In this document: in pieces, positions 22,931-56,800 of the stretch
How the letters are laid out: each line of letters starts with the position of its first letter
Numbering within the stretch: position 1 is the stretch's first letter
Assembly: GCA_010909165.1 (NCBI GenBank)
Contig: MU008168.1
Location: 806,001-870,000 of the forward strand
Source: Anthoceros angustus
Taxonomy: Eukaryota; Plantae; Anthocerotophyta
Reading direction: 5' to 3'
DNA: 64,000 nucleotides
Notes under the pieces: generated by a model
Told to the model about the DNA's origin: nothing
The model's database searches: none
Seen by the model: the letters and a program-made list of their open reading frames with translations, nothing else
Translations under genes and position numbers: made by a program

Positions 22931-22949
22931 GATATTTCACATTATAATA

Positions 22950-25800: not shown

Positions 25801-26034
25801 TGACGAAAAGCAAATATAACGCAGATTAATTAAGCAACAAGCAATAATTACATCATATTAATCATAAAGAAGTAAGTAATGTATAAGTGCTAAACACCTA
25901 TATTGGTTTTACGAAACGATATGACTTTTCGCCTAAGGGACGTAACCCTAATGAAAGGGTAAGCTGACTCAACTTAATTTAACCCTAACTTATTAACATG
26001 CTAACAACACCTAAACGACTTAGGTTTTTCTTCA
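25801..26034 (-). repeat. 3' LTR of Copia family A
   Basis: Direct repeat of 32666-32899, preceded on the - strand by the PPT. Confidence 0.95.
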
Positions 26035-26173
26035 CTCCCACTTGTTGTAGCAGGTTAAGTATAGGACTATCCTCCAGAGCATCGCCTCATGACAGTCTCT
26101 TGAGCTTCTCCAGTGTCTTCACGATTGTGTACCTTGTGCAAACCATTACGCTCCAGCTTGCGCCTAGAAAACC

Positions 26174-27128
26174 ATGGATCCAGACAATATGGAGCCATTT
26201 CCACTGAGGTGCGCTTCTTTTATAAGCGTGGCCTACGCCCTCACCTCAATTGTCCAGCTCTTGTTCGAGAAACACAAGCTCACCATGTCGTCTTGCGGAT
26301 CTGAAGCTCGGGGCGCACCTATGAGCGTGGCGCTTTGCGGAAGGGAGCTCGGACACCGTCGGCAATGTGATGAAATTGTAGGCGGGTACATGGAACAAGC
26401 AGTGCAGGCGCAGCTCGAGGCTCCATACTTGCAAGGCGACCAAGAGGGCGCCCACCAGGCAGAGCTTCAACTAGGGGGCGAGGGGCTCAAACTGTTGGCA
26501 CCTCAAGCATGCCAGGCCCATCACGCCCCGCTGCAGCTGCCCCAAGACCTGTTCACCCTAGGAACCGGGAGGTGGAGTGCGAGTATAATGACCACGAGAC
26601 ACAACCCAAGAAGCCTTTTATGTTCCCTGAGACAAACGACTACCTAGAGGAGACCAAGATAGTGAGCGTTGGCAGCGTCACTAATCCCGGCACCCCTGTC
26701 TGGTACCAGTGCAGGTTTAGCCAGCTGATGATGAAGCGCGTGAGGATCCAAGTCTGTAGAGAGTACCCCGGTCATGTTGTCAGCTCATACCGTAAGTTCT
26801 GTCACGCCCTTGCTTACTTTCCTGTTTAATGCTACCTTTGGCAGCAATTCTGAGCCATAGCTCCCACTGTTTGCTAAAAGTGGCAAATTGTCTTCTTTAT
26901 AGGTTCTGAGATGAGACTCAGGGAGGAGGAGTGCCTAGTCTCCCCTGAGAGAATCTCGTACGAGGAGAGGCGCAGGCGCAACACCCCTAGGTCTGATGAG
27001 AGTACCAAGACCCAGAGTCTGTAGAAGACTCTGATAGTGAAGATTCTGATGGAGATCCTCCCAAGTCTCCAGGATTTCTCAGTGATGAAGACAATGATTG
27101 CTCAAGTTCTCACTTCAGCTGGGGCTAG
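26174..27128 (+). CDS. Antisense, spliced accessory ORF of Copia family A (AT-hook, acidic tail; frameshifted in assembly)
   Basis: ATG at 26174. A second frame, open from 26374, encodes RRPRGRPP and PVHPRNREVECEY...VSSYR. Intron 26792-26902 (GTAAGT..TAG) rejoins in frame to SEMRLREEECL.. and then a D/E/S-rich tail ending about 20 bp before the pol stop. Confidence 0.6.
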
Positions 27129-27147
27129 GCCTTTTGAATTTGTCTTT

Positions 27148-30100
27148 TCAGACCTTGTGATGCTGGAGGAAGTCTTTTGACCTCCCCAAGCCAAGACTCT
27201 TTACATGTCGCATGTGCAAGTCTCTGCCCAACGCCTTGGTAAGTATGTCGGCAGGATTTTCAGCTGTAGGTACGTAGTCAAGAACTATTTTCCCTGCTTG
27301 CACAAGCTCTCGTATGAAATGGTACTCTACTTCCACATGTTTTGTACGCGAGTGAAACACAGGGTTCTTAGCAAGTGCCATTGAACCCTGATTATCAGTG
27401 TTGATAATCGTACAGGTAGGTAGGCTGATCCCCATTTCCTTGAACAGCAATTTCAGCCACAGAATTTCTTTATTCTTGCCGTTAGCACCGATACTCAACC
27501 CGATCTTGGATGTTGCTACGATTAAGTTTCTTCTTTGCTCCAACATATGGGTCCTCCAGCAAAACAAACCACGTAGCCAGAGACCGATCTTCTAGAATCC
27601 ACATCCCAGCATGATGCGAATGCATGAATACCTCTAAGTCTAAAGTCTAGGTAGGCGTCTTTTGATAGGCGGTCTTGTTCCTTTAAATACCTGAAGACTC
27701 GCTTCAAGCATTGCCAGTGTTCTTGTCCAGGGTTCTCTAAGAACTGCGACAGGGCACTTGTGGCAAAGGAAATGTCTGGCCTTGTGGTATTGGAGGCGTA
27801 GATTAGCTTTCCTACTCCTTTCCTGTAAGGTATGTTAGCCATTGCTTCCTGTTCATCTTGAGTTTCTGGACTCATTTCTCGACTGAGTTTAAGGCCAGTA
27901 GGAAGAGGGGTCGAGGCTGGTTTTGCGTCCTTAAGGCCCATCTGTTCAGCACAGTCCAGCAGGTACCTAGGTTGGGTTAAGGTAATGATCCTCCTGTCCC
28001 TGTTTCTTTGAACATGAACGCCCAAGCAACTCTGAAGTGGTCCCAAGTTGGTCATCTCAAACTTGTTTGCTAACAGCCCATTCAGGTCTGTGATAAATTT
28101 GGGGCTGTTGCAAGCTAGTATTAGGTCGTCCACATAGACAGCGAGATAACAAACAGTATCCCCTTTCCTATATACATAGAGGCTTCCATCTGCCTTGCAT
28201 TTGACAAAGCCTAGAGCAAGAAGCTCCTCATCAAGAGCCTCGTTCCACTTTAGTGCCGATTGTTTGAGACCATACAGAGTTTTAATCAGACGTAATACAT
28301 AGTCTTCCTTTCCCTTTACCTCATATCCAGGTGGCTGCTGCATGTAAATTTCTATGTCAAGCTTCCCATGTAGGAAAGCTGTCTTAACGTCGAACATCTG
28401 CAGCTCGTAGTCCTTGTGTGCTGCAACAGCACATAGAGTACGAAAAGTGGCCATCTTAACAACAGGTGCATATGTCTCGAAGTAGTCAAGGCCTGGCATT
28501 TGAGTAAAGCCTCTAGCAACGAGTCGAGCTTTATATCTATCAAAGGTGCCATCTGCTTTAACCTTGAGCTTAAAGACCCATTTACAGGACACCATCTTGC
28601 GACCTGGAGGTAACTGTGCAAGTTCCCATGTGCCATTTTTTATTAGAGAATTATATTCTGATTGAATGGCCTTTTTCCATTCTGCTGAATCAGGTCTACA
28701 AAGAGCTTCTTCATATGACTGAGGCTCAACAGGATCAAGGGAAGTTGCATGAGCCTGTGCCCTAAAATCAATTGATTGATAGTAATCGGGAGCACGTCTC
28801 TGTCTTGCAGGATAACGACGCTGAGGCTCAGGTTTAGGTTCAACAAGAACTTCATCTTCTGCAGCATCAGCCATATCATCTTCCGCAGCTGGTTCGTTTT
28901 CATCTTCAGGGTCTGGTTCCTGTTCATTGTTGACAGGCTGTGGTTGATTTTCATTCACTGGTTCGCCTTCCAGATCAACTAACACTGCCTGGTCATCCTG
29001 GTCAACTTTCAACCGCTGGTTGTTCGTCCCCACCAACAGGACCAGCATCCTCAAAGGGAAAATCGACCAAATGTGAGGCAATTTCGTCTTCATCTGCCTC
29101 AGCAGAAGGGTCCCCACCTGGTTGGGAAACTACCATTGCCCAAGGAACCTTTTCATTAAAGGTAACACTCCTGGAGTAAATGACCTTGTCCTTTGAAACA
29201 TCATAGAGTTTGTAGGCCTTGATGCCCTCAGTGTACCCAAGCATAAGAAGTTTCTGTGCTTTATCTAACACCTTCTTACGTTTTTCCTTAGGAATGAAAG
29301 CATAAGCTACACAGCCAAAGGTTCGAAGGTGAAGGACAGAGGGCTTCCGACCACAAAAGGCTTCATAGGGTGTCATACCCACAACTGAATTTGTAGGCAA
29401 CCTATTCCTGAGGTACACCGCTGTGGTTAGGGCCTCTGCCCAATATGGCAAAGGGAGATGAGCATAATGAAGGAGTGACGCTGTCATCTCCTGAAGTGTG
29501 AGATTCATATGCTCAAGAACTCCATGTGGAGTACACATCGTGAGTAAGCCCAATGCCCTCCTGCGCAGTGGTGCGGAATTCCTTGGAAGTGAACTCCCCA
29601 CCATTATGCGAACGGTGTCTTCACTGCTTCATTCAGTCACCAAGAAACTTAAGGTAAGTTTTGAAGTGTGAAAAGCATTCACTTTTGGCCTGGAGTATAT
29701 AAGCAGTGACAAAACGTGTCTTGTCATCGGTGAAGGTGAGGAAATATTTTCCACCACCTAGGGAAGGCTGCGACAAGGGGCCACGCTGGTTGCCAATTTC
29801 TGCAACTTAGCACTATGGGGATGGCCTAACCTAGCATGCCACAGCTGACTCTTAGCTATTTGCTGTGCAGTGGCTAGGGATGTGTCCTGTGTGAGATGTG
29901 AAACTGGCATTCCACTCTGAATATGGAGACGAAAGAGATCGTGATCTGATGACCCATAGGCAAGTATTTTTCTATGGTCAAAAGCATCTATCACCTGGCA
30001 TTCTGTAGTTGTAAACAGAACATGACTATTATTATCTGAGTTGAGTTGCCTAACTGAGATCAAATTCCTAGTCATGTCAGGTACATAATAAACATTGTTC

Positions 30101-31295
30101 AGAATGAGGGTCACTCCAGAAGGAACTGGCAAGTAAACCGTGCCTATGCCGGGTGAGACAAGTGAACGATCATCCCCTAGGTAAACATCGATCCGATGGC
30201 GGCACAGCATGTTTTATACCTCTGTCAAAAGCAGATGTGCTTGTAGCACACTAGGTACCATTCTATCAATGGTCTAACCTCTACTTTGCTGGACAAACAC
30301 GTGGGAAGGAGAAGTGGGTTAGAAAATTCCCTGGTGCCAACTGTAAGAGCAGAAGGGGTATTATTTTTCTTTACCACAACATTCGTTTCAGCTAAATTGC
30401 CTTCCTTTCGAGGCTGTCCAGCTTGTTTCTTTCTGCATTCACGCTCCCAGTGACCTGGCATTTTGCACCAATTGCAGCTGCCAGTCCTCTTGGGTTTCTT
30501 CGTGTTGCTAGAAGAGAAGCCAGCAGAGTGAGAGCCACTGCTACCCCTTTGAGAATTTCCTCCTCCTCCTCGAGGGTTATTTCTAGTATTTCCTCCTTTA
30601 CCCTTGTTTGAAGTGTAAAGGGCTTGCTGTTTTCCTGAACGTGTACTTGTGGTTCCCCTAGTGGCTTCCTCCTGCAGAAATGCTCCCACTACCTCAGAGA
30701 ATGTAGGTGCTGGGAGTGTCACATTAGCTGCCTTGGCTAATTTTTGTGTCTGCGCATATGAGGTATTGTACGATGTCACAAAGTGTGACCAGGAAGCTGG
30801 TAAGGACAGCATCAGGTACATGATGTATAGCTCGTCCCCCATGGGGTCCTTAGACAACGCCTCAAGCCTGGAGACCAGAGTCCTGAAATGCCCAATATGC
30901 TTTTCAATGGACTCTCCATCTTTCATCTTCAGGTTAGTAAGGTACTTGAGGGCTGTCATTTGGGTTGATGGATTGGAGCCTGAATACAGATCATGGAGAC
31001 GAACCCACAGCTCATTAGCAGTCTTGGCTCCCACTGTCTGCCTCAGCATATCAGCTGTAAGGCCACTTCGGAGCAGATACATGGCTGCGTCATCTTTGAC
31101 TGTCCATGCATCCTTGTCATCCTGCGATTGTGAGGCTGGTTTCGCCTTTCCATCTGTAATCTCCCAAAGCCTTTTTGCTTGGAGTGCTCCCTTCATCCTC
31201 ATGACCCAAATGTCATAGTCATGTCCCCCAAACCTATCCTTTTCCTTGAAGCTTTCTAACGAGACTCCACTAGAGGTGGAGGCTGCGTCACCCAT
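27148..31295 (-). CDS. Copia gag-pol polyprotein, family A (several frameshifts)
   Basis: Gag FKEKDRFGGHDYDIW, zinc knuckle CNWCKMPGHWEREC, GAG-pre-integrase LWHARLGH, integrase YWAEAL, RT YKARLVARGF and VYVDD, RNase H TDNQG..HSRTKHV..ADILTK. Confidence 0.92.
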
Positions 31296-31639
31296 TGTTA
31301 CTTTTCTAACTGTTGGACTTGTAATCCAATCCAGCCAGGAGAAGTCTAAATCAGAATCACTAGTATTACCAACGGGCATAACAAGGATGTCTAAACTCTG
31401 ATTTTAGGAGGAGACTATCGGCTCTTCAAGCCAAACGTTAGACAGGTGAGTTTGTTTTTTTTTTTTAAAATCTGCACCTATCTATTTATGCTGCTGATGA
31501 GGGATTCCTGAGTAATTTTTGCTGCTCATTACGGGGCAGCCTAAAGGAAGACCTAATCCACCAACCACAAAGCTTCAGCAGGCCCAACAGGATCATGTAG
31601 GGTTAACAACTGCTGATTTTCTCTTTGTGCAATCTGATT

Positions 31640-32275
31640 TCACCTATTTTCCCATCGATTGTGTGCATATGTTGAACATGAAGGGCAAGCATTTGGCTCA
31701 TAAAACCTATACTTACTGTTTACTTTCTTGACAGATTTCATAGCTGCTGATCTAAACACGGGGTTACACAGCAACTCTGCCTTCAGCAAGGTATGTAATT
31801 TGAAATCTATGTGCCTTATTTGCTCTTGTACGTCCTTCAGATCTACACCAAGGGTTGCAATAGACCTATTTGTGTGAATGTGATGCCTATCAACATAGGC
31901 TGCGTGGGTCTCTAATCTTTGAGCCAACTGATTCACAGAAATGTGTTGTGCAGATTGCGGAGTGAGAAAATTGTTAGGGTTACCAAACTGGCCAGGAGCG
32001 GCCTCTGGAGCACGCTGTTGAAGTTGCCTAGGATCTGTAGTAAAAGTTAGGTGCTGGTAATCTGGGTAGAGGGTCTCAACCAATGTATTGAAGGCCCTTT
32101 CAAGTTCAAAGGTCTGGAATGGTCTGTCTTGATTTCTCACAGTCCATTCGTAGGTCCTTTGATGCAATCTTTCAGCAAGATTCCTATCAGCAGCCCTAGT
32201 CCTCAGGCGATTCTGGCGTTGTTGAATTTGTTCAGCGCGAGGCTGCCACTGCTGGCCCCCGCCGTTGTTTGCCAT
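31640..32275 (-). CDS. Extra 211-aa ORF between PBS and gag of Copia family A (coiled-coil-like, C-terminal CxxC)
   Basis: Intact ORF MANNGGGQQW...ISVNQLAQRLETH...LKDVQEQIRHIDFKL...ACPSC on the element sense strand, with its own stop and separate from gag. Confidence 0.7.
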   Translation of the reverse strand: MANNGGGQQWQPRAEQIQQRQNRLRTRAADRNLAERLHQRTYEWTVRNQDRPFQTFELERAFNTLVETLYPDYQHLTFTTDPRQLQQRAPEAAPGQFGNPNNFLTPQSAQHISVNQLAQRLETHAAYVDRHHIHTNRSIATLGVDLKDVQEQIRHIDFKLHTLLKAELLCNPVFRSAAMKSVKKVNSKYRFYEPNACPSCSTYAHNRWENR

Positions 32276-32665
32276 GTAAAATGGCCAGATTTTTTATTGT
32301 ACAAATGCATTTAGAATACATTCTTGAACTCTTTTAAATTTTATAAATTGCCTTTGAAAATGCTTGTTGTGGGATCTGACGGGTGTCCTAGCGTGCCTAT
32401 TTTAGAATTGCTCAAATAGCAATCTAGAATAGGTGCGTTAGGATGCTATTCAGATCTTCATAAAGCAGATTCCAAGAAAAGGCAAATTAAAAATACAAAG
32501 AAAACAATCAAAATCCTGTTTCTTGATTATTTGCTCTATCCTTTAAAGAAACCATTTTCTATAGAAGATAAGAACAAAATATATATGTTTGTGCACACCC
32601 TAAGATGCACAATTTGATGTGCATTCTCTAGAATGCAATCCACGCTAATATATGCTCTGATACCA

Positions 32666-32899
32666 TGACGAAAAGCAAATATAACGCAGATTAATTAAGC
32701 AACAAGCAATAATTACATCATATTAATCATAAAGAAGTAAGTAATGTATAAGTGCTAAACACCTATATTGGTTTTACGAAACGATATGACTTTTCGCCTA
32801 AGGGACGTAACCCTAATGAAAGGGTAAGCTGACTCAACTTAATTTAACCCTAACTTATTAACATGCTAACAACACCTAAAAGACTTAGGTTTTTCTTCA
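32666..32899 (-). repeat. 5' LTR of Copia family A
   Basis: Adjacent to the PBS; direct repeat of 25801-26034. Confidence 0.95.
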
Positions 32900-32959
32900 A
32901 TACTACGCTCCCGTCTTCCCATTGGCCATGACAACACCATCCAATAGATCTCACTTATC

Positions 32960-35150
32960 TTCTACCAACCATCAGAATCACATCCTCACTCTTCGCCTGA
33001 CTGTAAACCTTCTTCCTCGGACAGGACTACTTCATCACCATCATCTTCACTATCGATAGCTGCATCTAGGGTGGAGGGCACGATGTGAGGACGAAGAGCA
33101 TTCAATTTCTCCGATCGCTTGTCTTGCTGTAAGAGATGTTTCTCGGATGTCACTGAACCCATAATATACAATAATGGTTTTACTGACGAAGAGCTCGGAT
33201 GTCTGGAGGCCTCGAAACCTTTTCCCGCCTTGCCTTTCAAAGGTGCTGCTATGTCGCTATCAGACCTGAGAAAGTATTCCCCTACATACTTCCCTTCAAA
33301 AGCATCTGTGTGTTTCGGTCCGCCACCAGTGCACAAAGAAATAGGGGTCAGGGACGGTGAGGTGGACACCAACAACCTTGGCCACCCAGAACGCCCTATT
33401 GTGAGTATCGCCCTCACAAGGCGTTACAATGAACATACCTTTTCTAATCTCCATGATGTCACCATTCATCCTCTCCACTTCCTCTTCACGCTGCTCAACG
33501 CTCGACATGCTCCTCGGTACATGTCCTGTTGTGGTACATCCCGCAATAATGCTTTGTCTAGGAGAGCTTCATCCGGAACCAGCAAGGGAGGCACATTTGC
33601 TTCTGCCTCTGCCCTATCGTACCACTTCCACGGGTTTTTCAAAACAAGTCCGATGTTATGGTCCACAATCGTTGCGATCTCCTCTTGATCCTTCCGATCA
33701 TCCCACCACTCCCCTCAACAAAGATTCACATAAGTTGGTAACTTCAGCATCCCTTTCTTCAAGTGATCGCCATCATGCGCTCAAGCCTCCTCCAATCCCT
33801 TTCTTGTCTTTCGCTGCAATGCCATTAAGGGAGTTGGGCCGATGATCTTTGTAGGCACAAACGACAAGAACTCAGGCCATCTTCGCTTCCCACAATGGAG
33901 AAGTCAGTATTGTTTACTCCGGAATGACTGCTACCTTTTCCGTCCCACTTTGTCTTCTTGGGTAATTTTGAACTGTTGGAGCGAAGGTTGTTCAACTTCC
34001 GCTACTGACTTTGTACTTCGACCTCCTTCCTCCTAATCGCACGGCCACACAAATGAACGGAAATGCAACCGTCACCACCTTCACTCTGGTTCGTTGTCTC
34101 TCAAAATGTCCATATAGTTGGTAGGGTTCTAGCCTCTTTGTGTTTATGTTTCGAGAAACAAGAAAACATTTGGTCGACTTGATCGTGTGTATGCCCAACA
34201 AGAAGAAAACCAACTTCACCTTCTCAAACGCTCCTGTGTCGACGAGCATGTTGAGGTAAGCAAAGAGCGGTGATTCTTGTTCTCCTACATGTGTCCAATT
34301 TGCAAATATAAAACTTTAGGAAGCAACCCTTCATAAGTGAGGATCATCACCTGTATAATAGAAATCGTCAAATTTGCATCATTCCTCAAATTTCATAGTG
34401 GAGATCGCCTTGAATGTGTAATTATGAATCATGCAACCCACTACATGCACTGTAATCTTGTTGTCCTCTTTTAAGTCCTTCGGCCACCTTAAGATATGTC
34501 CACACACAGAGAATTCCACTTCACGCTTTAACACATGTCACCAATGCTCTACTGTAATTGCTTACTTTGCTGAGAAGATTGAGGCATGCACGCCGCAAAA
34601 GGGCGAGTCATATCTGGCGTGCAAAATTCGCTTTGGTTCTTCTTTAAATCGAGCTCTATGAATTGGGAGGCATCTTCGCCTCCAAAATCAACATCGCCAT
34701 CACGTTCCTTGTGAATCGGCAACCACGTGACCCACATTGCCGTAAAGTTTCACTACAAAGGGCAATAGAAGCGAGCGGCACAGTGGTATCACCTCGGCGT
34801 CATGAAGAATGTGCGTAGCTTGCAGCATGATGTGGGACTAGAACCTTGACGACCTCGCCGGTGACACCAATAGTCGCCAACCTCAAACTATAGCCCTTTG
34901 CTTTCTTGCTCTCGTGTTGTACCTCTCTCACATTCGACCATGTATGGAACATTGAATGGGTGGAAAACGGGTTTCACGTTTCTTGAAAGCCAAAGCAACA
35001 ACAGGGCCAATCCCTTCTACAAGAAGTAAGTGGGCAAAATATTTTTCCACAAGGCATGCATCATTCTGACATCTAGCGGATCGAATCGGCTCAATTTATG
35101 GTTTTAACCACGGTAAAGCGGCGTTTCCATCTTCGCCATAACTAATTTAG
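32960..35150 (-). mobile_element. Sola-like DDD transposase pseudogene, copy 3
   Basis: LLPKVLYLQ..ENKN..FAYLNMLVDTGAFEKVK..LVGHTHDQVDQMFS; IGLVLKNPWKWY; KGMFIVTPCEGDTHNRAFWVAKVVGVH; acidic C-terminus. Confidence 0.7.
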
Positions 35151-35544
35151 GGTTTCCTCCCATACATACACATGTCGGCACCGTATTATAAGCCGCAGGG
35201 TGTCTGTTGTCGGACCTACGAAGTGGCGTAATGGCGCCATCTTCTTCCTTTGTTGGTTCGGAAGGCAACAAGTGCTTGTGAGGAGAACTTATGTTGTGCT
35301 CCAGCAATTCCGGCACACATCTGGGCACAAGCCAATTCCACTTGCTCCGGCAAGGCAGTGGAATTGGTGCGGCGCGAAACTGCGTCGGTCTAGCGACCAA
35401 GTCGGCCGTCTCGGCGGTGGCATCAAATTCGGCCCACAAGCGCCGTGCAGCGCGGCGGGAGGTTGGTATTTCTTCAACCCACACAACCATTGTTTTGGAT
35501 GGGCAATTACGCCCGACCCGTCTTGTGTGATTTCGTGAGCGGAT

Positions 35545-38500
35545 ATGGCAAGTGGGCGCGGAAGGGGCTGGCGGCGGATCTGTAGAGCTTGTGGACAAGC
35601 CAAAGCGGCATAAGCGACACTCGAAGAAGGAAGAGGAGGCAGCGCGGCTGCCCATGAGCATAGCGGTGGAGGGCAAAGGGTCCCTTGATCTGGTTCCACG
35701 TTTCGAGAAACCAAGCTCTGCAAAGGGGCGCAAGGGCACAGGAAAAGGTTGGCCTTCCCAAGTCTCGAAGGCTCCTCCCGGATCCCATCCCATCTCCTTA
35801 TCGTGAGGAGGCGGTGCGACAGCGAGCACACAAGCCGAGTTGATGAAGTTGTTTTGTTGGAGAAAGGCGGTTGTTCACGCGATCGGAGGAACTGAAGAGG
35901 ACACAATGGTGTGGACTCCTTATTAAAAATGGATTTTTGGGTTCAATGGTGCTTTGCACTGTCGGAGGAGCTAGGCGGGATGGGTTCTGGGCTACAATGG
36001 ATGTGGTGGATGGTGAACGGAGTTCGGGTTTGTGCACATCAAGCCTTACAGTGGAAGGGTTGCCCGACAGATGACTACAATGTGTATGTGCTAAGGCAGC
36101 TTTCACCAAGTATATCATCAAGGAAATTCTTGGATGCTGGCGAATTGAAAATGTAAGTGCAAATGTTTCCCTCAACTCTCTCTAACATGATCGGTGTGTA
36201 TTTGAGAGGCGATAAAAGTAACACATGTCTTGTGTTAAAACCATGTCGAGGTGGAAGATCATTTTATAGGTTTCTTTGTCGGTGATTGAGACTCCATGAA
36301 AATGCACCGCTTGAGATGTCTTTGCGGAGGACAAAGGCCCTTCCGGTTTGCCTTTACTAATGCGAGGAAGAAGAGAGCGAGTTTGGACCCTCGGATGAGG
36401 AGGATGGTCCCATTAGGCAGCAGCTAGGGCAGTCGGATGAGGAAGCCTCACGAAGACCAAGAGGAGGAAAAGGGACAAGGGCTTCTTTGCTTGTGCCAAA
36501 GTTAGCATACGTTCACATGAAGATGGGGCGGGAGGAACCCTCCTCTTAGCGACAACCGAGTGGGAAGCCCGCAAATCAATTGGTTTGTATCGGGCTTTGA
36601 TGCGAGGCGAGGGGAGGAGGCGCCGGCATGCCGGCGTGCCTTCCCAAGCGAGAAGGCACCCTAGCACGTTGGGTGGTGTGCAATCGGAGGCACCACCGGC
36701 CGCTAGTGGTAGTGGGGAGCCGGCCACAGGCGAAAAGCAACATCTGGAGCCATGGAGCTCTCTATGCAGGGTGGGCGTCGGAGGAGGAAGGCGCCGGCAT
36801 GCGGCGCCCTCCTTCCCTCCGATGATGTGGGTGCGGCGGCGCCGCGCCCCATGTCACTGAGGCGGTGGAGGCGTCGGAGGAAGGGGCGCGGCATGCCCCT
36901 TCCCTCCGATGGTGTGGGTCGGGCGCGCATGCGGCGCCATCCGGCGGTGGAAGGGGAGGCGGTGGAGGAGGCGGGGGCAGCATGCGGCACCCCTCCCTCG
37001 CTGTCGGATGTGGGCGCGGCATGCGGCCGCCAGTGGAAGGTGGGGATGCGGGGCCGGCATGCCCACGATGGCGGAGATGGAGAACCCGGGGCTGGGGAAG
37101 ACTTCCTCCCGGCCCTGGGCAACAGTCGGACTCACGGTGTGGATGCCAGCGGTCTGGCGGAAGAAAGGAAAGCGCGTCGCGCCTTGGAAGTAATGACATT
37201 CAATGTACATGTGCCACGGATGGGGGCATTGCGAGGCATCTATGTTGGATGAAGATTATTTGAGCAAACTGCGAGAATCGGCGTATGCAAAAAGGTGGTT
37301 CGAGCTGTTCTTGTGAAGCTCGAGAACTTGAGGCTGCATCATTCGACTCCGATGCGGATCCGGAATGTGGATGAGGCTGGGCTAACTATTTGGCGATGTG
37401 ATCAAACCTTGACAAAGATCCTCCCCTTCATGTCCTCTATTAGCCCAAGCACCTTATGATTAAACTTAGGTTCATATCATGGTCACACCATCTCGCTTTG
37501 CAATTTGGAGCTCATCTAGGGGTAACAATGGATAAAATTCATGTTTTTCCTCTTATGAGACGATGTTGTGAGCATTGCCAATATCCTGTCTGAGTAAGGA
37601 AAACATGGGCCTCCATCCATTGGTTTGCCTTCCACACGATGTCGACAAAGATGAATTTCATGGCGAGATATGATTACCACCTAGGACTCCATCACGTACT
37701 TCTTAGCTCAAAACTTGATAAGGTGCTTTTAATAGATAACGATGAAGGTCAATCAATATAAGAACAAGGTGGACAACATATTCTATTCTATGCATTGCGA
37801 TTGGAGGAAAGGTTTGGAAGAATGTTGATAGTATTTTCACAAAGTGGGAGGCCATGGAGCTAGGAGGCGAGGCAAAGCATGTGGCGGGACCCAAGAAGAG
37901 CAAAGGAAGCATAAAGTTGGTGATGAAACAAAAGTCTGAAGGTGTATTTACGAAGCCCAAAGAAATGCGAGGGCAAGCCATGGCGCGATTTCAAGGTATT
38001 CCTCCGAGGCGGGGCGAAGATGCTAATTAGTGTGGCCCGAGAAGGTGTTGGGTCTTCTAGACACAGATGGAATGTCAAGGAGGTGACCTGCGGAAGAAAT
38101 TTCATGTCATACAAGTGGCTATGGCAAAGCATCGGGGTGTAGTTCATTCGACATGGTGAGAGCGAATACCCACTACACTCATCGGATCACGATGTCGCGA
38201 GTTCAAAGCGCTTTTGAGGAAAGGTATGTCCTTCTATGTCTATGATTAGATTGGTTGAAGGCGGCTTGCATCTGTCGTTTTCCCCCTCTTCTCTCGGCGT
38301 GTGATTGTGAGCTTTAGCATTTGTTGTCTTCGTGCAGAAGTAAAAGATGTTGAAGACACGAAATTGCAGAGGATTTTCAAGCTTTCATACTAGAGGTGCA
38401 CACATGGAAAGGCTTGGAGGACGAGCAAAGGGCACTTGCAAACATGGACATGGAGGAAGGGCTCCAATCTTTCACAGTGCCAAAAACGGAGAATATTGTG

Positions 38501-40135: not shown

Positions 40136-40139
40136 AGGA

Positions 40140-40460: not shown

Positions 40461-40537
40461 CTCCGAGGCAGTGAGCCTCGCACCACGAACTTAGACATAG
40501 GTAAATAATATTATGTTTAGGTTACAAGTATATACAA

Positions 40538-40538
<1 letters not shown>

Positions 40539-40568
<30 letters not shown>
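40539..40568. repeat. (TA)n microsatellite
   Basis: Perfect tatata run. Confidence 0.9.
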
Positions 40569-40572
<4 letters not shown>

Positions 40573-40995
40573 AATACGTATTTCAATCATATATATATAG
40601 GAATATACACAACAAGTGGGCACAAACCATATATATAGATAGACATATAAATAATCTAGAATCCTACTATACATAATCGGTAAAACAAGAGTTTTCAATT
40701 GTGTATGTGGAGCTTAAAAACAAAACCGGATGTGGACACAAGGGTGCATTGAAGAGGAAGGTAGATTATAAAATGCATAGCTATGCAAAGGAGGCAAAAT
40801 GGAAAGAGAATGACAACCACGGAGAGAGATAGAGTTCAGTTCTTGTCATGTAGGAAAAGCAAGAGGGAAGAATAAAATAGTAGCGTGAGAGGAGCTCAAT
40901 CACATCATGTTGCAACACAAGAGGAAAAATTATAAAATGGGTGTCATCTTGAGCATTAACTAGGAGTGTGAGGTGAAAGGAGAGACCAGAGGCAG

Positions 40996-41180
40996 GTTGT
41001 TAAGATGGTGAGAGAAGGTGGAGAAGAAAATCACAAACTTAACACCAAGCCAACAAACTTAATGCTAGGCTCTTAATGGTGAGGTGTAAGGTCAACAGAC
41101 CACTTGCATGTTGTTAAGATGGTGAGAAAAGGTGGAGAAGAAAATTACAAACTTAACACCAAGCCAACTAACTTAATGAG
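40996..41180 (+). repeat. ~70-bp direct repeat x2 (third degenerate copy near 41331)
   Basis: gttgttaagatggtgaga.aaggtggagaagaaaat.acaaacttaacaccaagccaac.aacttaatg at 40996 and 41110. Confidence 0.75.
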
Positions 41181-42016
41181 TGTTTCAAATGGAAAGTGTT
41201 ACATGAAATTGTAACAAAGGACTCTAACATAAGCGAGTTTGCATAGTATATGTTTGAAATCATAAACAATGCTTGTGAGAGAGAGGTGTACTTAGGAGGG
41301 TGAGGTGATGAGGAGAGAGTCGGGGTTCGTGTTAAGATGGTGACAAAATGAGAAGGAATAGTGTCAAACTTAATACCAAGCCTACATAGCTTGTTGCAAT
41401 TTGGAAGTGTAACATAAAATTGCAACAACGACTGTAACATGGCCTGCCATTTCTAGTAGGGAAAGGAAATGATGGTGGCCTTTTGGATGCAGAGAATGCC
41501 ATGAGGGAGAATGACAACTTCGAAGACGCGGAGGAGGCAAGGCTTAAGAGTACGGAAGTAGTCTTAGATAGCGTGTCTGGGCAGTGCCCATTGGAGTCCC
41601 AAACCTGTGCGGATTAATTGGGCAATTAGGTCAAAGCTGAAAGGTACGTCCGTGGATTCGAAATCGTTATAGTGCAAAAGCGCCGGCATGCGTACCGTTG
41701 ACTATATATACATGTTCGTGGATTTGGACGAATACTTTTGTGCATTTGTTCTGTGCCATTGCCGTGTTCATAGTTCACATACATTCGTTGCATGCGCCGA
41801 CGCAGACTTCCTCATGACCGTATCCAGCATTAGTATATACGATGAAATCGGACAAAACCATACTGTATACCATTCAGGAACCTGCGGCCAAAAAACCTGA
41901 TGAATGAAAAAAGCCGCTTTTGTGACCGTGGAGCACATAGAAAAGTGGTCCGAGGTTTCTGGAAGCGGCTTCGTATATTCAGCCCCTTCAAACATTACCA
42001 TGTTAAGGGATGCTTC

Positions 42017-42771
42017 TCATCTCTTGCATTTTCCTGAGTCTTGAGGCGGGTCCTCTACCTCTTCTCTCCACGAGGCAATTGGTGATCTCTTGGCTTGGCC
42101 CTTCGAGTTGAATCTTTCCGAATGGTGGGCGGCGTAATGCTCTTGATGGATGAAAAAGGTGTACTCTTCCTTCTTGAATTCGAACTGTACTCCTAGAGCA
42201 TAGCGCAGAGGTCCCATGTCGACGACGTCGTACTCCTTTGATATCAGATCTTTGACAAACTGTATGACTTCAAGGTTATCACCAAAAATGAAGTTATCAT
42301 CTACATACAGGGTGACGATTGCAAGTCTGTCCTTTGTCTTCAAGATGTAGACGCTGGTGTCGGAGACGAGAGGGGTGAAACCACACTTTTTTAGGTATGT
42401 ATCAACAGTCTCATTCCACACTTGTGCTGACTGCTTCAGTCCGTAAATGGATTTAAGCAGCTTGCATACCTTGCTGTTGTCCTTCACAAACCCTGGTGGT
42501 TGAAGCATGTAAATGTCTTCATGTAGAGTCCCATATAAAAATGCAGTCTTGACGTTTACCTGGTGTATGTGCAGGTGATGATGAGCAGCAAAAACTAAGA
42601 GAATTCATATGGATGTTGCCTTGACGACTGGGCTGAATAGTCTGTTTTCCTCGTAGTCGAAGCCTTGTACCTGGGTGAAACCACGGGCCACCAGTCTGGA
42701 CTTGTACCTCGAAACAGTCCCATCAGGGTTAAGTTTTCTTCTAAAGGTCCATTTACAGGAAATTGGTTTGC
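42017..42771 (-). mobile_element. Copia family D reverse transcriptase fragment (host of the family C insertion)
   Basis: [38 protein letters not shown]; cut by the LTR at 42772. Confidence 0.88.
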
Positions 42772-43011
42772 TGTTAAACTCCATAGTTTATTATAGTAAC
42801 CACGGTCACTGGGTTACTTAAACTAGGGTTAAATATATTACTTAGGGTTTAGTATTTAAGACCAACTCTTTGTAATCATTAATATCATTATTCATTATTC
42901 AAGTTTGTTGTTCTCTCTAAGCAATATTGTCATGGTATCAGAGCACGGTATCATCTATCTTCATTGCCTTTGCTAAGAGAGACATCTGCAGACATTTCCT
43001 ACGATTGGAAA

Positions 43012-43590
43012 ATGCCTCGCCTTAATAGGAACCGTGTGCTGCAAACAAGAGTTTCTTTAATTTCATCAACGATAGATATATCGAGAGAGAGGGATAAATC
43101 TAGGGCGCCAACTATCACGATCATCTTCATTCATGAACTCTGCTCAGCCACCGAGGTTCCGGCTGTCATTCTACATCTCCACATTACCGCCATCTTGAGC
43201 AGGTTTAGGGTATCACAGGATAGAAGGAATTCACAAATAACATAGGGCTATGAGCAACCTTGCAGCCAAGGCAATCAAACCGCGGAAGCCTGGCGATTTT
43301 GCTTAGTGAGGTTTATGATGAACCCGTTGTTACCTTAGGAGACTTGCAAGTGATCTTTGTTTCGACACAACTGCAGCACTTACGGGACAAATTTTTACGA
43401 AAATCAGCGGCATTATTCAAGGCAACTTGATGCCTGGCAAAACAATTCGAGGCGAATACGAATTGGATGGCCCCATAGTTGATGGGCATCGCCACGATCT
43501 TAGAATTTAGCGGGCATTGCCCGGCCTCCCTACCTAGCAAATTTGACAAATTTGCAAAAAGGGACGGGAGATTCGAAGAGTCGTGAGCTA
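43012..43590 (+). CDS. Extra ORF between PBS and gag of Copia family C (frameshifted; second copy 57035-57630)
   Basis: Consensus of the two copies: MPRRNRNRVPANKSFFNFITDRYIRERDRLG...RAVSNLAAKAIK...EVYDEPVVTLGDLQV.LFRH. Confidence 0.5.
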
Positions 43591-44029
43591 GAAACCGAAA
43601 GGACGGCAATTAAGTTGAAGCGGCACGGCAACATCGTGCAGATCAGGTCAGCACGAGGGTTTAATTAATTAATTAATTAATTGATTGATTTTAACCCATG
43701 AGCAAATAAAGCTCAACGGCTTTATGCCGTCTCGCTTCTCAACCGTCAACCATTGGCCACCCTTTCACCTTCCGTGACCGTCGGTGACGGGATTACGCTA
43801 ACTTACTTGGCGGATTCGATCTGTGCACCAGGAATATAGAATTTGATTGAAAGATCGGACGGTGAGTGATTTGTGCACCGAGCCGAGCTTTGATCTTTGC
43901 ACTAGGGTTATTTATGCACACGCAAGGCAGGATTGCATGCGAGATTAAGCGGGGATCGCCAATTTGCAAAAGGACCGGGCTTATTTTTCATTACATTCCG
44001 TACACACACGGTGAGCATCTGATGGGATC

Positions 44030-44305
44030 AGCGCCGCCCTCACGGCCTCACGGCACGATCAGCCCAGGCGCCGCCCTCGCGGCCTCACGGTAGGATCGGC
44101 CCGCGGCGCCCTCGGCCTCACGGCCTCACAGCGAGATCGGCCCGCGGCGCCGCCCTCACGGCCTCAGCCGAGATCGGCGCGGCGCACGCCCTCACGGCCT
44201 CACAGCGAGATCACCGCGGCGCCGCCCTCACGGCCTCACGGCGAGGATCGGCCCGCGCGCCACGCCCTCCACGGCCTCAGCGGCGGACGACCTCGGGGTT
44301 TCACG
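44030..44305 (+). repeat. GC-rich CACGGCCTCAC tandem repeat in family C leader (again at 59800-60025)
   Basis: ~36-bp units gcgccgccctcacggcctcacagcgagatc. Confidence 0.75.
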
Positions 44306-44856
44306 GCAGCGGGGATCAGTGCAGAAAGGCGCCGAGGATCGTATTCCTCGGCCGCCTCATTGCACGGCCCGGGATCTGCCCGCAGCCCGGGATCGTCGCA
44401 TGGAGTGGAGGATCAACCCCTTGGATATGCCGTGCCCATATCCGCCATCTCGTGCAACCCGGTAGACACATCATGGCTGGAAATTCGAGAGCCAAGGTTG
44501 ATAGCGAGGACATTAGCGCTGCTCCCGAATTCAGGCGAGGAGGCCACTACGGATCACGGGTCTGTAGAAAACCTAGCTAGCGAATCATACTTCTACACTA
44601 GGTTAGAGTTAGTTCTACATTTTAAGTTACAACTTCGTTATAGCGGTTTAATAACGTATTCCTTGGACATATAGCCAAGGCTATTTTCCCTTTCAATACA
44701 CTCTTCATTTCATGCTTCCTTGCTCTTGCCTCTTTGCATAAATCTAAGCACATGATGCACCTTCACACTTCTGTTGTTTGATCCGGTCATCTCTTTATAT
44801 TAGAGCCTACTTGGTAGGTGTGCTAGCGGTGGATCACCACACACCTAATCTTCAAG

Positions 44857-45336
44857 ATGCCTAAGATTTGCGGCTGCAATTTCGGGCCGATCAGCGGAAG
44901 CAGGGGACTCATCTCCCTTGCCTGTCACGATTGCAGATCTGGCGCGCCCCCACCGACCGGGGACATCCTGCCGCGAAGGGCGCCGCCAGGAGGAGCACCT
45001 ACCGATCTGCTACACCCCTTGCACTCGGTTGCCGCGATCTGTATTCACACGAAATCAACTCGACTGCGACAGTTGCCAAGGGCGTCTTCAATGCGCCAGG
45101 ACACACATTAGTCGCATGAGAACAGCGAAACCGCCATCTTCCGTGAACTCAGCAATCTGAGGGGGCGTGTGAAGTCAAGAGATCTTCTTATTAGGAGAAT
45201 CTGCGGGTATTGTTAGTCTTGCACTCATCGATAATTTCCTGCATGACCTTCCTCGTTAGTTGCTCATGTCAACTGCCCCATGCCATGCTTTAGCTTGCCT
45301 TTTTCCTATGCAAGCTCAGAACCAGGAAGGAAATGA
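44857..45336 (+). CDS. Extra ORF between PBS and gag of Copia family B (frameshifted; second copy 60577-61063)
   Basis: Consensus of two copies: MP..QFRADQRKQG...EEHLPICYTL..RLRDHIFTRNQLDCEVAKGVFN...ETAIFRELSNL...DLLIRRIC. Confidence 0.45.
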
Positions 45337-45457
45337 TGAGCCTCTTGACATTGCCTTCTTGTTTGCTGCCTTCCCCTCTTGGGATTTCTCTCCTTCAATT
45401 TGCTAGAGAGCTAGGCAAATACAATTTCAAGCTTTTCATCCATCCTCAACCCACATC

Positions 45458-48400
45458 ATGGCCATTTCGGCACTCTTCTGCAGACCTAGTTCCTCGAAAA
45501 TAGAGTTAGAGACAAGGATAGATTTAATAGCACGAGACTACGGTTGGGGACTTACCCAAATTTTTTAGGAGAATGAGCTTTTTTCCATCGTGGATGGGAC
45601 AGAAGTTAAGGTAACATTACGTGCTAGAACGGCTGATGATATCCTAGCCTGGGAGCGGAAGGATAGAAGAGCTCGTTCAATTCTCATTGCTTCTCTAGAC
45701 AAGACCATGTTACCCCACACTATAGGAGCCAAAACTGCCAATGACGTGTGGAAGGTATTTCAGTCTATCTATCAGGATAAGAGCTCAGCATCCCTTGTTC
45801 ATGCGTACAAGGATTTCTTCAATTTGAGGATGAAGGAAAATGAGCCTGTTGAGGCTTACATTAACAAGTATAGAGCCCATAGGGCGAACCTTGCTTGTTG
45901 TGGGACCACTCTCACTGAGGTTCAAGCAGCCGTCAGTCTCCTTGCCTCATTACCTGACAGCTACAGCAGTTTTGTTAGTAGCCAGAACTCCACAATACAT
46001 GCCGCAGTTAAGGCGACAGCAGCAGGCCAGGTTCCTGCAGTCACTCTCGAAGAGATTATTGGAGCACTTCTTGCTGAGGAAAGATCTCGTGCATGTCACA
46101 AACCACGAGCTTCAAGCTCTAGTGGAGGAGCAAGGGTCCTTTACTCTTCAAGAGGACGAGGTGGCTTCAGAGGCCGTGGCCGGGGGCGAGGGTTCTCCAC
46201 ACAACCACAGCGTTTCAACAACATCAGTAATACCAAGAAGACTTTTGTGTGTAATTGGTGTAAGATTCCCGGCCATTATGAACGCGACTGTCGCAAGAAG
46301 AAACAAGGAGAGCCACGACGAGACACTGCACCAGCTGAGAGCAACCTCACAGTGAGCAAGGCCAAGCAGCCAACAATCTTGGCAGTTTGTTTAAGTACCG
46401 TCCAGACCCAGTCAACCTCTTGGTTTTTAGACTCTGGTGCAACCAGTCATATTTGCTTTGATAAGTCTGCTTTTTCCAGCTTTGTACCCGCTGACGATGC
46501 TAAGCAGTTTGTACTTCTGGGTGATGATAGTGGACTCTCTATCAAAATGGATTGCAGCTGGATGCTTCGCCAAGTTCTACTCACCTCATTTTGAGTGATG
46601 TCCTTTACGTACCTTCAATGACGAAGAATCTCATGTCAGTCATGAAGCTTGCACAGGACCACAACCTCCGAGTGTCTTTTGATCATCAGGGGTGTACCAT
46701 AACAAAGTCAGGTCAGAACCTATTTAGTGGAACCTGCTTTCATGATCTCTATTTGTTAGACGTCTCTACTGCAGCATCTGATAGTACCTATGCTCATGTT
46801 GCAAGCACACCATCTACTCAGCTATGGCATTGTTGCTTAGGCCATGTGAATTTTCAGCGTCTTGCCACCCTTGTCAAAGGAGAGACGTATAGGGAACCCC
46901 TCGATTTTACTTTTGACTCTGATGTCTTTTGTGAGGCCTGCCAGCTTAGTAAAGCTCATAGTCTGCCCTACAAGGACACAGATCTTAGTCGAGCTGATGG
47001 TCTACTTCACACAGTACACAACGACATTTGTGGCCCTATGTCAACTAGTTCATTTGGAGGCGGTAATTATTTCATCACTTTCATTGATGAGTGGAGCAGA
47101 TATTGTATTATCTACATTCTACGCCACAAGAGTGAGGCACTGAACTGCTTCAAGTCATATGTAAGATTTGCTCAGAGGCAGACATCTTGCAAGGTACGAA
47201 TTTTGAGGACTGATAATGGTGGTGAGTACACCAGTAACGCATTCAACTCCTTTTGCACAGAAGAAGGAATTCTGCATCAACTCACAGTCCCATATACACC
47301 TCAGCAGAATGCATTTTCTGAAAGAAAGAATAGAACCTTGCAAGAGGCTTCTTTAGCATCACTTACCTTTGCTGGACTCACACGTGGTTATTGGGCTGAG
47401 GCCTTGATGGCAGCTAATTATGTCCAGAATCGTCTTCCAACGAAGAATCTTGGGAAGACGACCCCGTTTGAGCGCTGGACAGGCAAGAAACCCCGGGTAC
47501 AACATCTACGAATTTTTGGCTCACCTGCCTATGCTTTGGTACCTCCCTCACAACGTACCAAGTTGGACCCGCGAGCATCTCGACATGTTTTTGTTGGCTA
47601 CTTTGATGAGGTGAAAGGGTATAAGCTTTTTGATCCTACTTCTCGCCAACTCACTCTTGCTCGAAGTGTTATCTTCAATGAAGCTGCTCTTCTTCGCCGA
47701 CATCTGGCCACTCTTCAGCCTCAAGCAGACCCACAACCACCTTCCATTCACGGCATTGAAGATTCTGATTCTACCTTACCTGATGAGGTCAGTTTCTATG
47801 AAGATAACGACCCTCCTTCTTCGGATTACCAGGGGGCCACCAGTAACACTCTACAACAGCAGTCTCCTGTGACACAGCAATCTCCTTCAACTACCAGCAG
47901 CCATGATGATGATTCAGCTGATTCAGGTATTTCAAATCTTAATGAGCTGACCGGTGATGCACCTATAAGTCGAGACATCTACGACACAGCGATCTGCTGT
48001 CGACACTTCTTGTTGATCACGCATCTAATCCAGAAGAAGTCACCCTTAGGCGTTCCTCCGTGATTAGAAGACCCATGCATGAGTGGAATGAACCTCCTTT
48101 TCAAGCTGGTCTAGTCAATCTGATCCCCATTTAGCCCTTTCTCTTAAGCGTTTCTTCCTCATTAGGAGAACCGCCACATATAAAAGCTATTGAAGGTCCA
48201 GTCTGTTTTGGAAAGCGACCATAGACTTTGAATACCAATCACTCATAAAGAATCACACATGGGAATTAGTTGACCTTCTAAGGGTAGGAAACCGTCGAAT
48301 GTAAGTGGGTCTTTAAGAAAAAACTCAATCTTGATGAATGCTTGTTGGAAGATATAAAGCTCGCCTTGTAGTAGCTATGGCAGTTCACGGACTCAACTAC

Positions 48401-49691
48401 AATGAGACTTTTGCACCCGTTGTCAAGTCCACATCATGAAATTCTCTTAATGTAGCTGCCCACTACAACCTACTTGTGCATCAGTTAGATGTCAAAACAG
48501 CGTTTCTGAATGGCTTGCTTGAAGAAGACATATACATGTGCCATCCCGAAGGTTTTGTTATTGATGCAGACAAGGTTTGCAAACTTTTCAAGACCCTATA
48601 TGGGCTTAGCGGGCTTGAAGAGGCACGGTATGAGGTATTCCATAAGCTGTTTATTGAGCTTGGTTTCATTTGCCTCGATCACGGACACAAGTGTGTATGT
48701 CTTTGTGGAAAGGTGATGAGTTTGTCATACTCACGGTGTATATGGGTACAATTTTCTCTTTAGCAATTCACTGCTATGATGGCCACTTATTAAAAGCATC
48801 TTTTGTCCAAGTTTGAGATAGTGATCTAGGTGATCGACATTCTCATTAGATTATTTCATTTCAATAGGTGATGGGACAATAGACATACACCAAGAGCATT
48901 TTGTTCACAATTAGGCGCTTTAAGATGCTAGATGCAAAGCCAATAGCTACTCCCATAGGCATTGGTGAGAAGCTCTCTTTAAACGATTGCCCATTACTTT
49001 AGAAGATAAGCGAGGCCATGTATGGGACTCCTATACCGCAAGCCGTAGGCTCCCTCATCTATCTTTCTAGGCGGACGAGGCTAGATATTACACAGCGATG
49101 GGAGCGAGTTGATTTTGGAGAACCAGGCACACTGCTGCGGCGATCAAGCGGATTTTCGCTATTTGAAGGGCACTGCAAGGAAAGGCTTGCGCTTTAGAAA
49201 GCTGAAGGAAGGTTTAAATTTGACATATTGTGGCCGGGGCTGGGGACCACGATGCAGGGCAGTGTAGGCGCATATTGCTCGTTCATGGGAACCTCGGTTG
49301 TCTCTGGTCAAACAAGAAAATCCCAACCATTTGCCTCTCCTCGATGGAGGCCGAATACGCAGCCATGCCTCAAGCATCAAAGGAGATTATATGGATCGGG
49401 AGTTTTCTCAGGGCCTTGACTCCGAAAGTGGAGCTACTCCTCTATGGTGTGACAACCGATCGGATTGCTCTCACGAAGAACCCGATTTTTTCATGATTTG
49501 AAGCATATAGAGATCGACCATCATTTCATCGACGAGCAGAAATGGAAGTCACAGTTTCCTATATTCCATCTGAGGACAACATTTCGGACCTGCTTACAAA
49601 GGCCTTATCTAAACCTTCTCATGACAAACATACTTTAGCTGCTGGTGTTTGTCTGATTCCTGCTGTTGCTGCTAAGGGTACTGCCCATTAG
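45458..49691 (+). CDS. Copia gag-pol polyprotein, family B (frameshifts in RT/RH)
   Basis: CNWCKIPGHYERDC knuckle, protease WFLDSGAT, integrase HxHCC/DICGP/RTDNGGEY/GKGY-like VKGY, RT HQLDVKTAFLNG, RNase H SSMEAEY..DLLTKAL; TAG at 49689-49691. Confidence 0.9.
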
Positions 49692-50577
49692 TCAACCCTT
49701 GTGTGGGAGCTTGCCAGTTTTGTCCAGGGATTTGATCAGTTCCTCCCTCGTTCTGTTTGCCCTGGCAAACTCCTCAATAAGGGCTGCATAACAGAAAGTG
49801 GGTTAGTATGAATACATATGAAGCTTAGCAGCATTCAGTTTCTAGGCACTTACATCCATAGGTCACCAGCAGGCCAGTTTCCGTCATGTGAGGTTAAGGC
49901 TTCTTCTTCTCTTTTCCCTTTTTCGCTGCAGTCTTAATAGGCTTTCGTCCCCACTCTTTCTCCATGTAGGCTTCGTCTTCTGAGTCGATTGGAAGTGGAA
50001 CTTTGATGTAGTTCAGCAGCTCCTCTTTGCTTGGATCAACTCCTACGTCCACTACACCAGCCTTCTTGCTCTTCTTCTCTGTCTCCCTCACTGTTGCACC
50101 ATTGAAGTCTGCTGAGGCAGCCGCAAACACTTGTTTTGGGTTGCCTCTGTTGTCAAAGTTCTGTATTCTCCTTGCTGTTTTGCCCTTGGACGTATCCGTA
50201 GGAAGTGGATCACCCACAGGGGAGTTGAAGGACACCATGTTGGAGTCCGGGCAGTTCATGGCGTGGAGACACGACTGCCTCTCGGAGAACTTGCGCCTTT
50301 GGGATCACAGGCGATCACCCAGACACCCGGACCACGGATGGAGTCTTCCATTTTGGCGATTACAGGTGTGGCCTTGTTGCGGGAGGCGGTGGACAACAAG
50401 CGGAGGCGCCCGGTGAACCGTCACCACCAGCAAAGTGAGCTCGACTGCATTGAGTGTGGCCATGGCTGCCTTTATTCGGAGTGATGGAGCGTAACAAGAT
50501 GAGCGTAAGGACTGGAGTGCAACTGGAGTGAAAGGTGTAGGACAGTTCTCACGTTTAGCAGGAGTCAGGAGACTCAT
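49692..50577 (-). CDS. Antisense, spliced accessory ORF of Copia family B (basic NLS-like stretch)
   Basis: ...SKEELLNYIKVPLPIDSEDEAYMEKEWGRKPIKTAAKKGKEKKKP*PHMTETGLLVTYG | intron 49853-49784 (GTAAGT..TACTAAC..CAG) | SLIEEFARANRTREELIKSLDKTGKLPHKG*. One in-frame stop and frameshifts in the assembly. Confidence 0.6.
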
Positions 50578-50986
50578 GATGTTCTTTAGTTGTACTTTTG
50601 TAATTACTCTTGCTTCCCGTTTTTGGCTACTAAAATGCTAAAACTAAGTGGGAGTGTAGAAAACCTAGTTAGCGAATCATACTTCTACACTAGGTTAAGA
50701 GTTAGTTCTACATTTTAGTTACAACTCAGTTATGACGGTTTAATAACCGTATTCCTTGGACATATAGCCAAGGCTATTTTCCCTTTCAATACACTCTTCA
50801 TTTCATGCTTCCTTGCTCTTGCCTTTTTGCATCGTCTCTAAGCACCGCCACATGATGCACCTTCACACTTGCGCTGTTTGATCCAGGGCTGTCATCTCTT
50901 TAGGTGCCGCCTCACGAATTCTTGGATCGTGCTCTTTCTCTCCTACGCAGACCGCTTTTGGTCGAGGCATTTGGCTCTTTTATGCC

Positions 50987-56650: not shown

Positions 56651-56800
56651 GTATTCTTCCTACTTGAGTTGCGGTGGAGGCGGTGCTCGGCCGGATGAAG
56701 CTTCTTGCACACACATAATCGTTCAACACTAAGCTCGTTTCCTCTTGACCATCTTCGTTTTTAAGTCTCGTCCTTGTGTAACAATTTGTCGTGGTTAAGG

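Follow-up and report, generated by a model that had tools for sequence, protein, structure and literature searches.

Can a plant Copia retrotransposon carry accessory genes on both sides of gag-pol, one of them spliced from the antisense strand? Plant Copia elements are taken as uniform apart from SIRE (PMC6317226), and the role of antisense extra open reading frames (ORFs) in long terminal repeat (LTR) retrotransposons is an open question (PMC7264820). The question is raised by a stretch of 64,000 nucleotides from Anthoceros angustus (GenBank assembly GCA_010909165.1, contig MU008168.1, positions 806,001 to 870,000 of the forward strand), referred to here as the window and numbered from its first letter. 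An earlier sequence-only reading had placed three Copia families of the window, A, B and C, in one lineage in which gag-pol is accompanied by a 5' extra ORF and an antisense frame, the latter with an intron in A and B. This claim is partly confirmed: the layout appears real for A, half real for B and not real for C. What can be read directly in the DNA is how the elements are built, that A has a 5' ORF, and that there are antisense frames with intron signals. That the 5' and antisense genes of A and the antisense gene of B form a genuine layout is, judging by the sequence, quite likely. With less assurance, we consider it probable that A is a recent Copia element with a 5' extra ORF and a likely spliced antisense gene, that B has the same antisense layout, and that the antisense protein of A is a chromo-shadow-like chromatin factor.

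Element A lies on the minus strand at 25801-32899 and has the following parts.

32900-32904 and 25796-25800: target duplication of 5 bp
32666-32899, minus strand: 5' LTR, 234 bp, with one mismatch and no gaps against the 3' LTR
32654-32665, minus strand: primer binding site (PBS), TGGTATCAGAGC
31640-32275, minus strand: 5' extra ORF, 211 codons from ATG to stop, unbroken, predicted to be mostly helical
27148-31295, minus strand: gag-pol (gag, protease, integrase, reverse transcriptase (RT) and RNase H), with a few frame breaks
26903-27024, plus strand: candidate antisense exon 2, about 40 in-frame codons with a basic stretch
26792-26902, plus strand: candidate antisense intron, 111 nt, GTAAGT..TATAG, phase 1
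26174-26791, plus strand: likely coding exon 1 of the antisense gene, opening with an ATG at 26174 and made up of two open frames that overlap and are separated by one break
26035-26043, minus strand: polypurine tract (PPT), AAGTGGGAG, directly before the 3' LTR
25801-26034, minus strand: 3' LTR, 234 bp, with donor-like sites on the antisense strand at 25872 and 25959

A is a Ty1/Copia element by its TG..CA LTRs, PBS, PPT, target duplication and gag-protease-integrase-RT-RNase H order with RVT_2; the Pfam domains gag, protease, pre-integrase, SH3 and RVT_2 follow one another as in Copia. The earlier assignment of both A and B to Copia is upheld by gag_2, pre-integrase and SH3 in both elements, by rve in B and by RVT_2 in A, again in Copia order (Pfam). 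Frame breaks in A occur at about 1-2 per kb, and its RT-RNase H region shows one when set against an independent protein. Because the LTRs differ at 1 of 234 bases and a 5-bp target duplication is present, both inserts of A were copied along with it very recently. Telomere-like TTAGGG/ACCCTA words occur in the LTRs of A (25801-26034) and C (56801-56958); these are telo-box-like and might serve as promoter sites or as sites for chromatin factors.

The 5' ORF of A stands about 980 nt before the gag core. Its length of 211 codons was reached by none of 2000 first-order shuffles; frame and splice tests were made within the 64-kb window. Under a codon model whose training set was seven gag-pol and host frames, its frame had the only positive score among the six, and a score as high was found in just 10 of the 300 stop-free frames of the window, mostly gag-pol and a host exon. 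No relative was found in Pfam, NCBIfam, a set of 5.8 billion proteins or the ESM Atlas (no usable match), there was no homologue among 59 candidates, and the protein was absent from an exact look-up. Its model is helical and weak (pLDDT 42), and none of 289 Foldseek matches reached E 0.001. Among six proteins searched, NCBIfam matched 0 of 6 and PHROGs gave weak matches to 2 of 6 (E 0.09 and 0.34). Like the 5' ORFs of some Gypsy elements, the A 5' ORF would encode a further accessory protein, here a helical one, and gag-pol would then have to be translated from an internal start or from spliced RNA.

A 5' extra ORF had been claimed for all three elements. The claim stands for A, where the frame is intact, and is not borne out in B and C, whose 5' regions (720 and 2150 nt) have longest ATG frames of 84 and 77 codons, not above chance in shuffles (p 0.27 and 0.76). 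In both regions codon scores are negative over most of the length, and neither aligns to the A 5' ORF above shuffles. A real ORF in the B 5' region could be hidden by read noise. A 37-bp GC-rich tandem array occupies 44031-44284 in the 5' region of C, and a possible N-terminal extension of Gag is the Gly/Pro/Phe-rich frame at 50978-51274, just before the C gag core. Upstream of the gag core, A (31379-31295) and a second copy of B (61035-61203) also each have an open frame with an in-frame ATG, and these share a faint motif.

Behind pol, the distance from RNase H to the PPT is 1104 nt in A, 954 nt in B and 140 nt in C. The sense frames of the insert contain 13-16 stops each in A and 10-15 each in B, and no sense extra ORF was found. 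On the antisense strand of A, exon 1 is split across the open frames 26168-26644 and 26374-26826, so that one frame break has to be assumed; the codon score shifts between the two frames near 26470-26560, and one break fits the error rate of A. The ATG frame has 157 codons, a length reached in 16 of 2000 shuffles, and the two pieces rank 31 and 38 among the 300 stop-free frames of the window on codon score. An acidic stretch follows exon 2, in another frame, to about 27130.

Element B lies on the plus strand at 44563-50902. Its ends are noisy; Pfam finds gag_2, pre-integrase, SH3 and rve, and the RT was placed by alignment to A.

44563-44797, plus strand: 5' LTR, noisy
44857-45260, plus strand: 5' region after the ATG at 44857, which may hold a coding ORF, though the tests do not support one
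45458-49690, plus strand: gag-pol; set against an independent protein, the RT-RNase H region shows 13 frame breaks and 5 stops
49692-49783, minus strand: candidate antisense exon 2, some 30 codons in frame, its end adjoining the pol stop
49784-49853, minus strand: candidate antisense intron, 70 nt, GTAAGT..TACTAAC..TGCAG, phase 1, with a consensus branch point and a pyrimidine tract
49854-50463, minus strand: likely exon 1 of the antisense gene, coding-like at 49897-50259 and not so upstream; broken
50646-50654, plus strand: PPT, AAGTGGGAG
50655-50902, plus strand: 3' LTR

The antisense ATG frame of B has 121 codons (62 of 2000 shuffles were as long), and its main piece, 49897-50259, ranks 27 of 300 on codon score. 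The introns had been predicted at 26792-26902 in A and 49784-49853 in B, and at these positions both candidates are phase 1 and join open frames. The intron signal arose in 12 of 2000 shuffles for A and 6 of 2000 for B; within the window it is present in 2 of 126 one-kb strand windows, which are the A and B sites themselves, and in none on the sense strand. Antisense gene position, strand and intron phase are the same in A and B though their gag proteins are just 40% identical. The earlier description of an intron-containing antisense ORF is thus borne out as to frames with intron candidates in both elements; the frames themselves are not continuous, as exon 1 of A has one break and exon 1 of B is interrupted by several breaks and, at 49894-49896, by an in-frame stop. 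A nested DNA transposon as the source of the inserts was rejected, as no terminal repeats flank them.

Several results weigh against this reading of A and B. The upstream antisense piece of B ranks 261 of 300 on codon score. The intron filter was chosen post hoc and recovers 0 of 8 listed host-gene introns, making the p values optimistic. The antisense products of A and B align at shuffle level (score 34 against a mean of 32.5), as do the 5' regions, and each antisense gene is present in a single, broken copy. The second copies of B and C are not independent, because C and B form one tandem duplication, and they include no second antisense region.

Element C is the host of the B insertion and departs from this arrangement.

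42772-56958, plus strand: element C, with LTRs at 42772-42933 and 56801-56958

Its RT-RNase H region has 7 frame breaks against an independent protein. A short antisense frame had been noted after its RNase H; the 140-nt spacer there holds no intron signal, codon scores are not positive, and no frame is coding-like. With this short spacer, a different PPT and no supported 5' ORF, C was rejected as a third member. Nor is it shown that the three families form one lineage: the layout is absent from C, the RTs are no more alike among themselves than to those of unrelated Copia, and the trees have no resolved backbone. RT identity is 45% for A-B, 44% for A-C and 41% for A-D, D being a fourth Copia RT; unrelated database Copia elements are 38-46% identical to A. 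The gag start motif proposed as a lineage mark is indeed present in A, B and C, but in A it overlaps the general Copia DUF4219 motif.

For A and B alone, the evidence from sequence favours kinship: gag identity is 40% (against 29% for A-C), and the PPT-LTR junction is common to both and different in the C PPT. The shared PPT AAGTGGGAG directly before the 3' LTR had been correctly described; the accompanying statement that the LTRs are unrelated needs tempering, since this junction is shared. The only close relative of the A RT is the database protein P0001 (76%), and the best named match of the RT is from Marchantia. In quick trees A and P0001 were grouped (100) and the remaining backbone was open, B, C and D forming long noisy branches; one tree had 123 rows (B left out), the other 38 (34 of 120 database hits, hand-picked), and references were unlabelled. 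Locus scans for related elements returned two distant loci (38-39%) and no lineage member. The A PBS, which we take to be of the initiator tRNA-Met type and to match full tRNA-Met, is not the half tRNA-Met site of Bryco and Osser Copia. That half site is a feature of the Bryco/Osser lineage (PMC6317226).

What, then, might the antisense gene of A encode? The stretch in question closes exon 1.

26641-26793, plus strand: part of A antisense exon 1 proposed as a chromo-shadow-like domain, an ESM Atlas lead only

Before the Atlas search, we had likened the end of exon 1 by eye to a chromo shadow domain, a resemblance that the earlier reading does not mention. The top three Atlas matches are chromo shadow clusters (0.89, 0.88 and 0.86, with 159, 164 and 143 of 256 features), and the ten best named matches all belong to one clan. 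The chromo shadow fold consists of a three-stranded sheet and a C-terminal helix, and the domain forms a homodimer that binds PxVxL partners. A single-sequence model places strand, strand and helix where expected, at pLDDT 48. A number of observations count against the assignment. The Atlas score is below 0.9, which makes it a lead by the calibration of that tool, the 159 of 256 features fall short of the 170 usual for family members, and a score of 0.8 was reached by one third of shuffled proteins; furthermore, the by-eye likeness and the Atlas model both read the same letters. No Pfam chromo match (PF01393) was obtained with the unspliced frame as query, the final residues lying in exon 2, outside that query. 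A phmmer search against solved structures gave six matches to E 10, none of them a chromo protein. A profile hidden Markov model (HMM) of nine canonical chromodomains, which is not a chromo shadow model, left A unscored; B obtained -0.1 bits, a value that 132 of 500 shuffles exceeded. Taken together, we put the identification of the end of exon 1 as a chromo shadow domain at close to an even call, leaning slightly to doubt.

Related searches yielded little. The by-eye reading of the B exon junction as the end of a chromodomain was unsupported by the nine-chromodomain HMM. Among 1.84 billion representatives, phmmer with the A domain produced three matches, all of them repeat proteins that matched in a few words and were rejected. 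Fold searches with the weak model (pLDDT 48) returned nothing above Z 3.9 or E 0.001, which speaks neither for nor against a chromo fold. An ORF at 793-1827 of a viral contig (L003), with an integrase-like part and a C-terminal chromodomain, served as a reference.

A mechanism can be outlined on this basis. Transcription of the antisense gene would start in the 3' LTR and run along the strand opposite to gag-pol. The PPT complement is an acceptor-like site on the antisense strand in A and B, and together with the donor-like sites in the A LTR it would permit a 5' UTR intron. The antisense intron would survive, since only sense genomic RNA is reverse-transcribed, and the frame breaks would mostly be read errors of a noisy assembly. 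The A antisense product, with its basic stretch in exon 2, would be a nuclear protein. In the weakest step, dimers of its chromo-shadow-like module would either recruit host HP1/LHP1 partners or compete for them, an engagement that would relieve silencing of the element or steer integration. HTLV-1 HBZ, with which the antisense genes had been compared, is itself spliced; as a lead, the chromo-shadow-like stretch makes a chromatin role more specific than that analogy, the role itself being a candidate. The earlier argument that antisense orientation lets an intron survive reverse transcription holds, and known antisense ORFs agree with it (PMC7264820). If the assignment is true, the chromo-shadow cargo would mimic a hub domain of HP1/LHP1, relieving silencing or choosing insertion sites.

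In its fullest form, the reading holds that a seed-free-plant Copia lineage is a retrovirus-like three-gene element whose spliced antisense gene is a stand-alone chromo shadow (HP1/LHP1-type) decoy or adaptor, the first chromo-clan domain outside Gypsy chromoviruses; we offer this tentatively. A rival account, which we also regard as possible rather than probable, accepts the layout and supposes that the cargo differs per element and is not chromo-like, consisting of fast-evolving accessory genes, e.g., for nuclear import or as particle chaperones. The lack of A-B similarity agrees with it, no sequence or fold search backs a chromo fold, and REXdb records extra ORFs in many unrelated groups (PMC6317226); it does not explain why the Atlas matches converge on one family that had been named beforehand. 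Should the inserts instead be captured fragments of host genes (in A, an HP1/LHP1-like piece), carried as passengers or acting as antisense RNA only, one would understand why they bear introns, share no A-B homology and are both broken, and antisense RNA roles have been discussed (PMC7264820). However, a recent capture should match a host relative, and none appeared among the 1.84 billion representatives; place, strand and intron phase are common to two elements, and codon scores favour one frame. We judge capture unlikely.

Chance offers a further explanation, in which frames and splice signals arose in GC-rich spacer DNA of a noisy assembly. This is true for C and compatible with the B 5' region, and the post hoc intron filter adds to it; the A 5' ORF statistics and the matching intron signals in two elements make it very unlikely as an account of the whole. 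Finally, the A 5' ORF might be part of a long or spliced Gag, truncated by read errors or joined via a sense intron. A sense donor-like site at 31716, acceptor-like sites at 31541 and 31398, and the open frame upstream of the gag core in A and the second B copy would suit such a Gag. The intervening 360-nt spacer, on the other hand, has 6-11 stops in each of two sense frames and 4 in the remaining one, far more than the A break rate would give, and neither junction gets to the gag frame without more stops, leaving this idea rather improbable.

The surroundings of these elements are repetitive. The window is about 48% GC. The C+B unit is tandemly repeated to the window end (42772-48369 resembles 56801-64000 at 84-88%, with many indels and a shared C LTR), either through unequal recombination between LTRs or as an assembly artefact, and duplicated stretches in general differ by many indels. 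Smaller tandem doubles occur at 53087-55204 and 22946-24601. The RT of D, on the minus strand at 41900-42770, is interrupted by the C insertion. An old repeat family with a DUF7869 match is found at 13601-14785, 21695-22115 and 33272-34498, one copy adjoining A. Host sequences include a MINDY deubiquitinase gene (Pfam) with short introns at 5700-9480, pieces of whose 3' end are found again near 11070-11240 and 12090-12190, and gene pieces at 1447-1746 and 3574-4166 with weak Pfam matches to AAA and Tim17 families.

Among known systems, the nearest in layout are the antisense ORFs between pol and the 3' LTR (aORF-3R) of plant Ty3/Gypsy elements, i.e., gene23 of Grande, RIRE2, Retand and ORF2 of pvRetro13, whose function is unknown (PMC7264820, PMC4093653). 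A and B carry an antisense ORF at this same position and strand, with frame breaks. A nuclear regulatory role has been proposed for the known ORFs, and Grande was shown to have its own antisense promoter (PMC7264820). The known hosts are Gypsy, including all 15 antisense-ORF families in the available text of PMC4093653, whereas A and B are Copia with an intron candidate; the aORF-3R domains named there are Transposase_28, plant mobile domain and SMC-like, with no chromo type listed in the available text (REXdb, PMC6317226). Antisense accessory genes behind pol are also found in brtn of Boty from Botrytis, but in a fungal Gypsy element (PMC7264820, bioRxiv 2021.04.13.439636), and in HTLV-1 HBZ, but in a retrovirus, its antisense promoter being cited in PMC7264820. 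For the 5' ORF of A, the counterparts are the sense ORFs between the 5' LTR and gag in Ogre and in Retrosat2/FRetro3 (ORF0), and Ogre has extra ORFs at both the 5' forward and 3' reverse positions (PMC4093653; REXdb). These elements are Gypsy, not Copia, and the A 5' ORF has no Pfam match to their domains.

Within Copia, SIRE/Sirevirus elements have an extra ORF behind pol, as do A and B (env-like eORF-3'F; PMC6317226). The SIRE ORF runs in sense orientation, opposite to that of A and B; in addition, A carries an ORF 5' of gag, and the LTRs here, at about 234 bp, are short. In the literature consulted, no Copia element with the A layout and no retrotransposon-borne chromo shadow gene was found, including the available text of PMC11963269, PMC13547354 and bioRxiv 2021.04.13.439636, which contained no such Copia; precedents may exist in the per-element table of REXdb, which gives the orientation of Copia extra ORFs. 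In that resource 582 Copia elements have extra ORFs of at least 250 codons, of which only the SIRE sense ORF is named as typical in the available text (PMC6317226). Such elements may be common and overlooked, because the 250-codon cut-off for unspliced ORFs would miss both extra genes of A. As to the cargo, the chromoviruses of Ty3/Gypsy carry a chromo-clan domain, as A would if the lead holds, and are, in the available text of REXdb, the only LTR group with chromodomains (PMC6317226). Their chromodomain is fused to integrase, whereas the A candidate would be of the chromo shadow type and belong to a Copia element, in an antisense gene of its own. Extra ORFs being known mainly from Gypsy, a young Copia element such as A, with its 5' ORF and its candidate spliced antisense gene, widens this picture.

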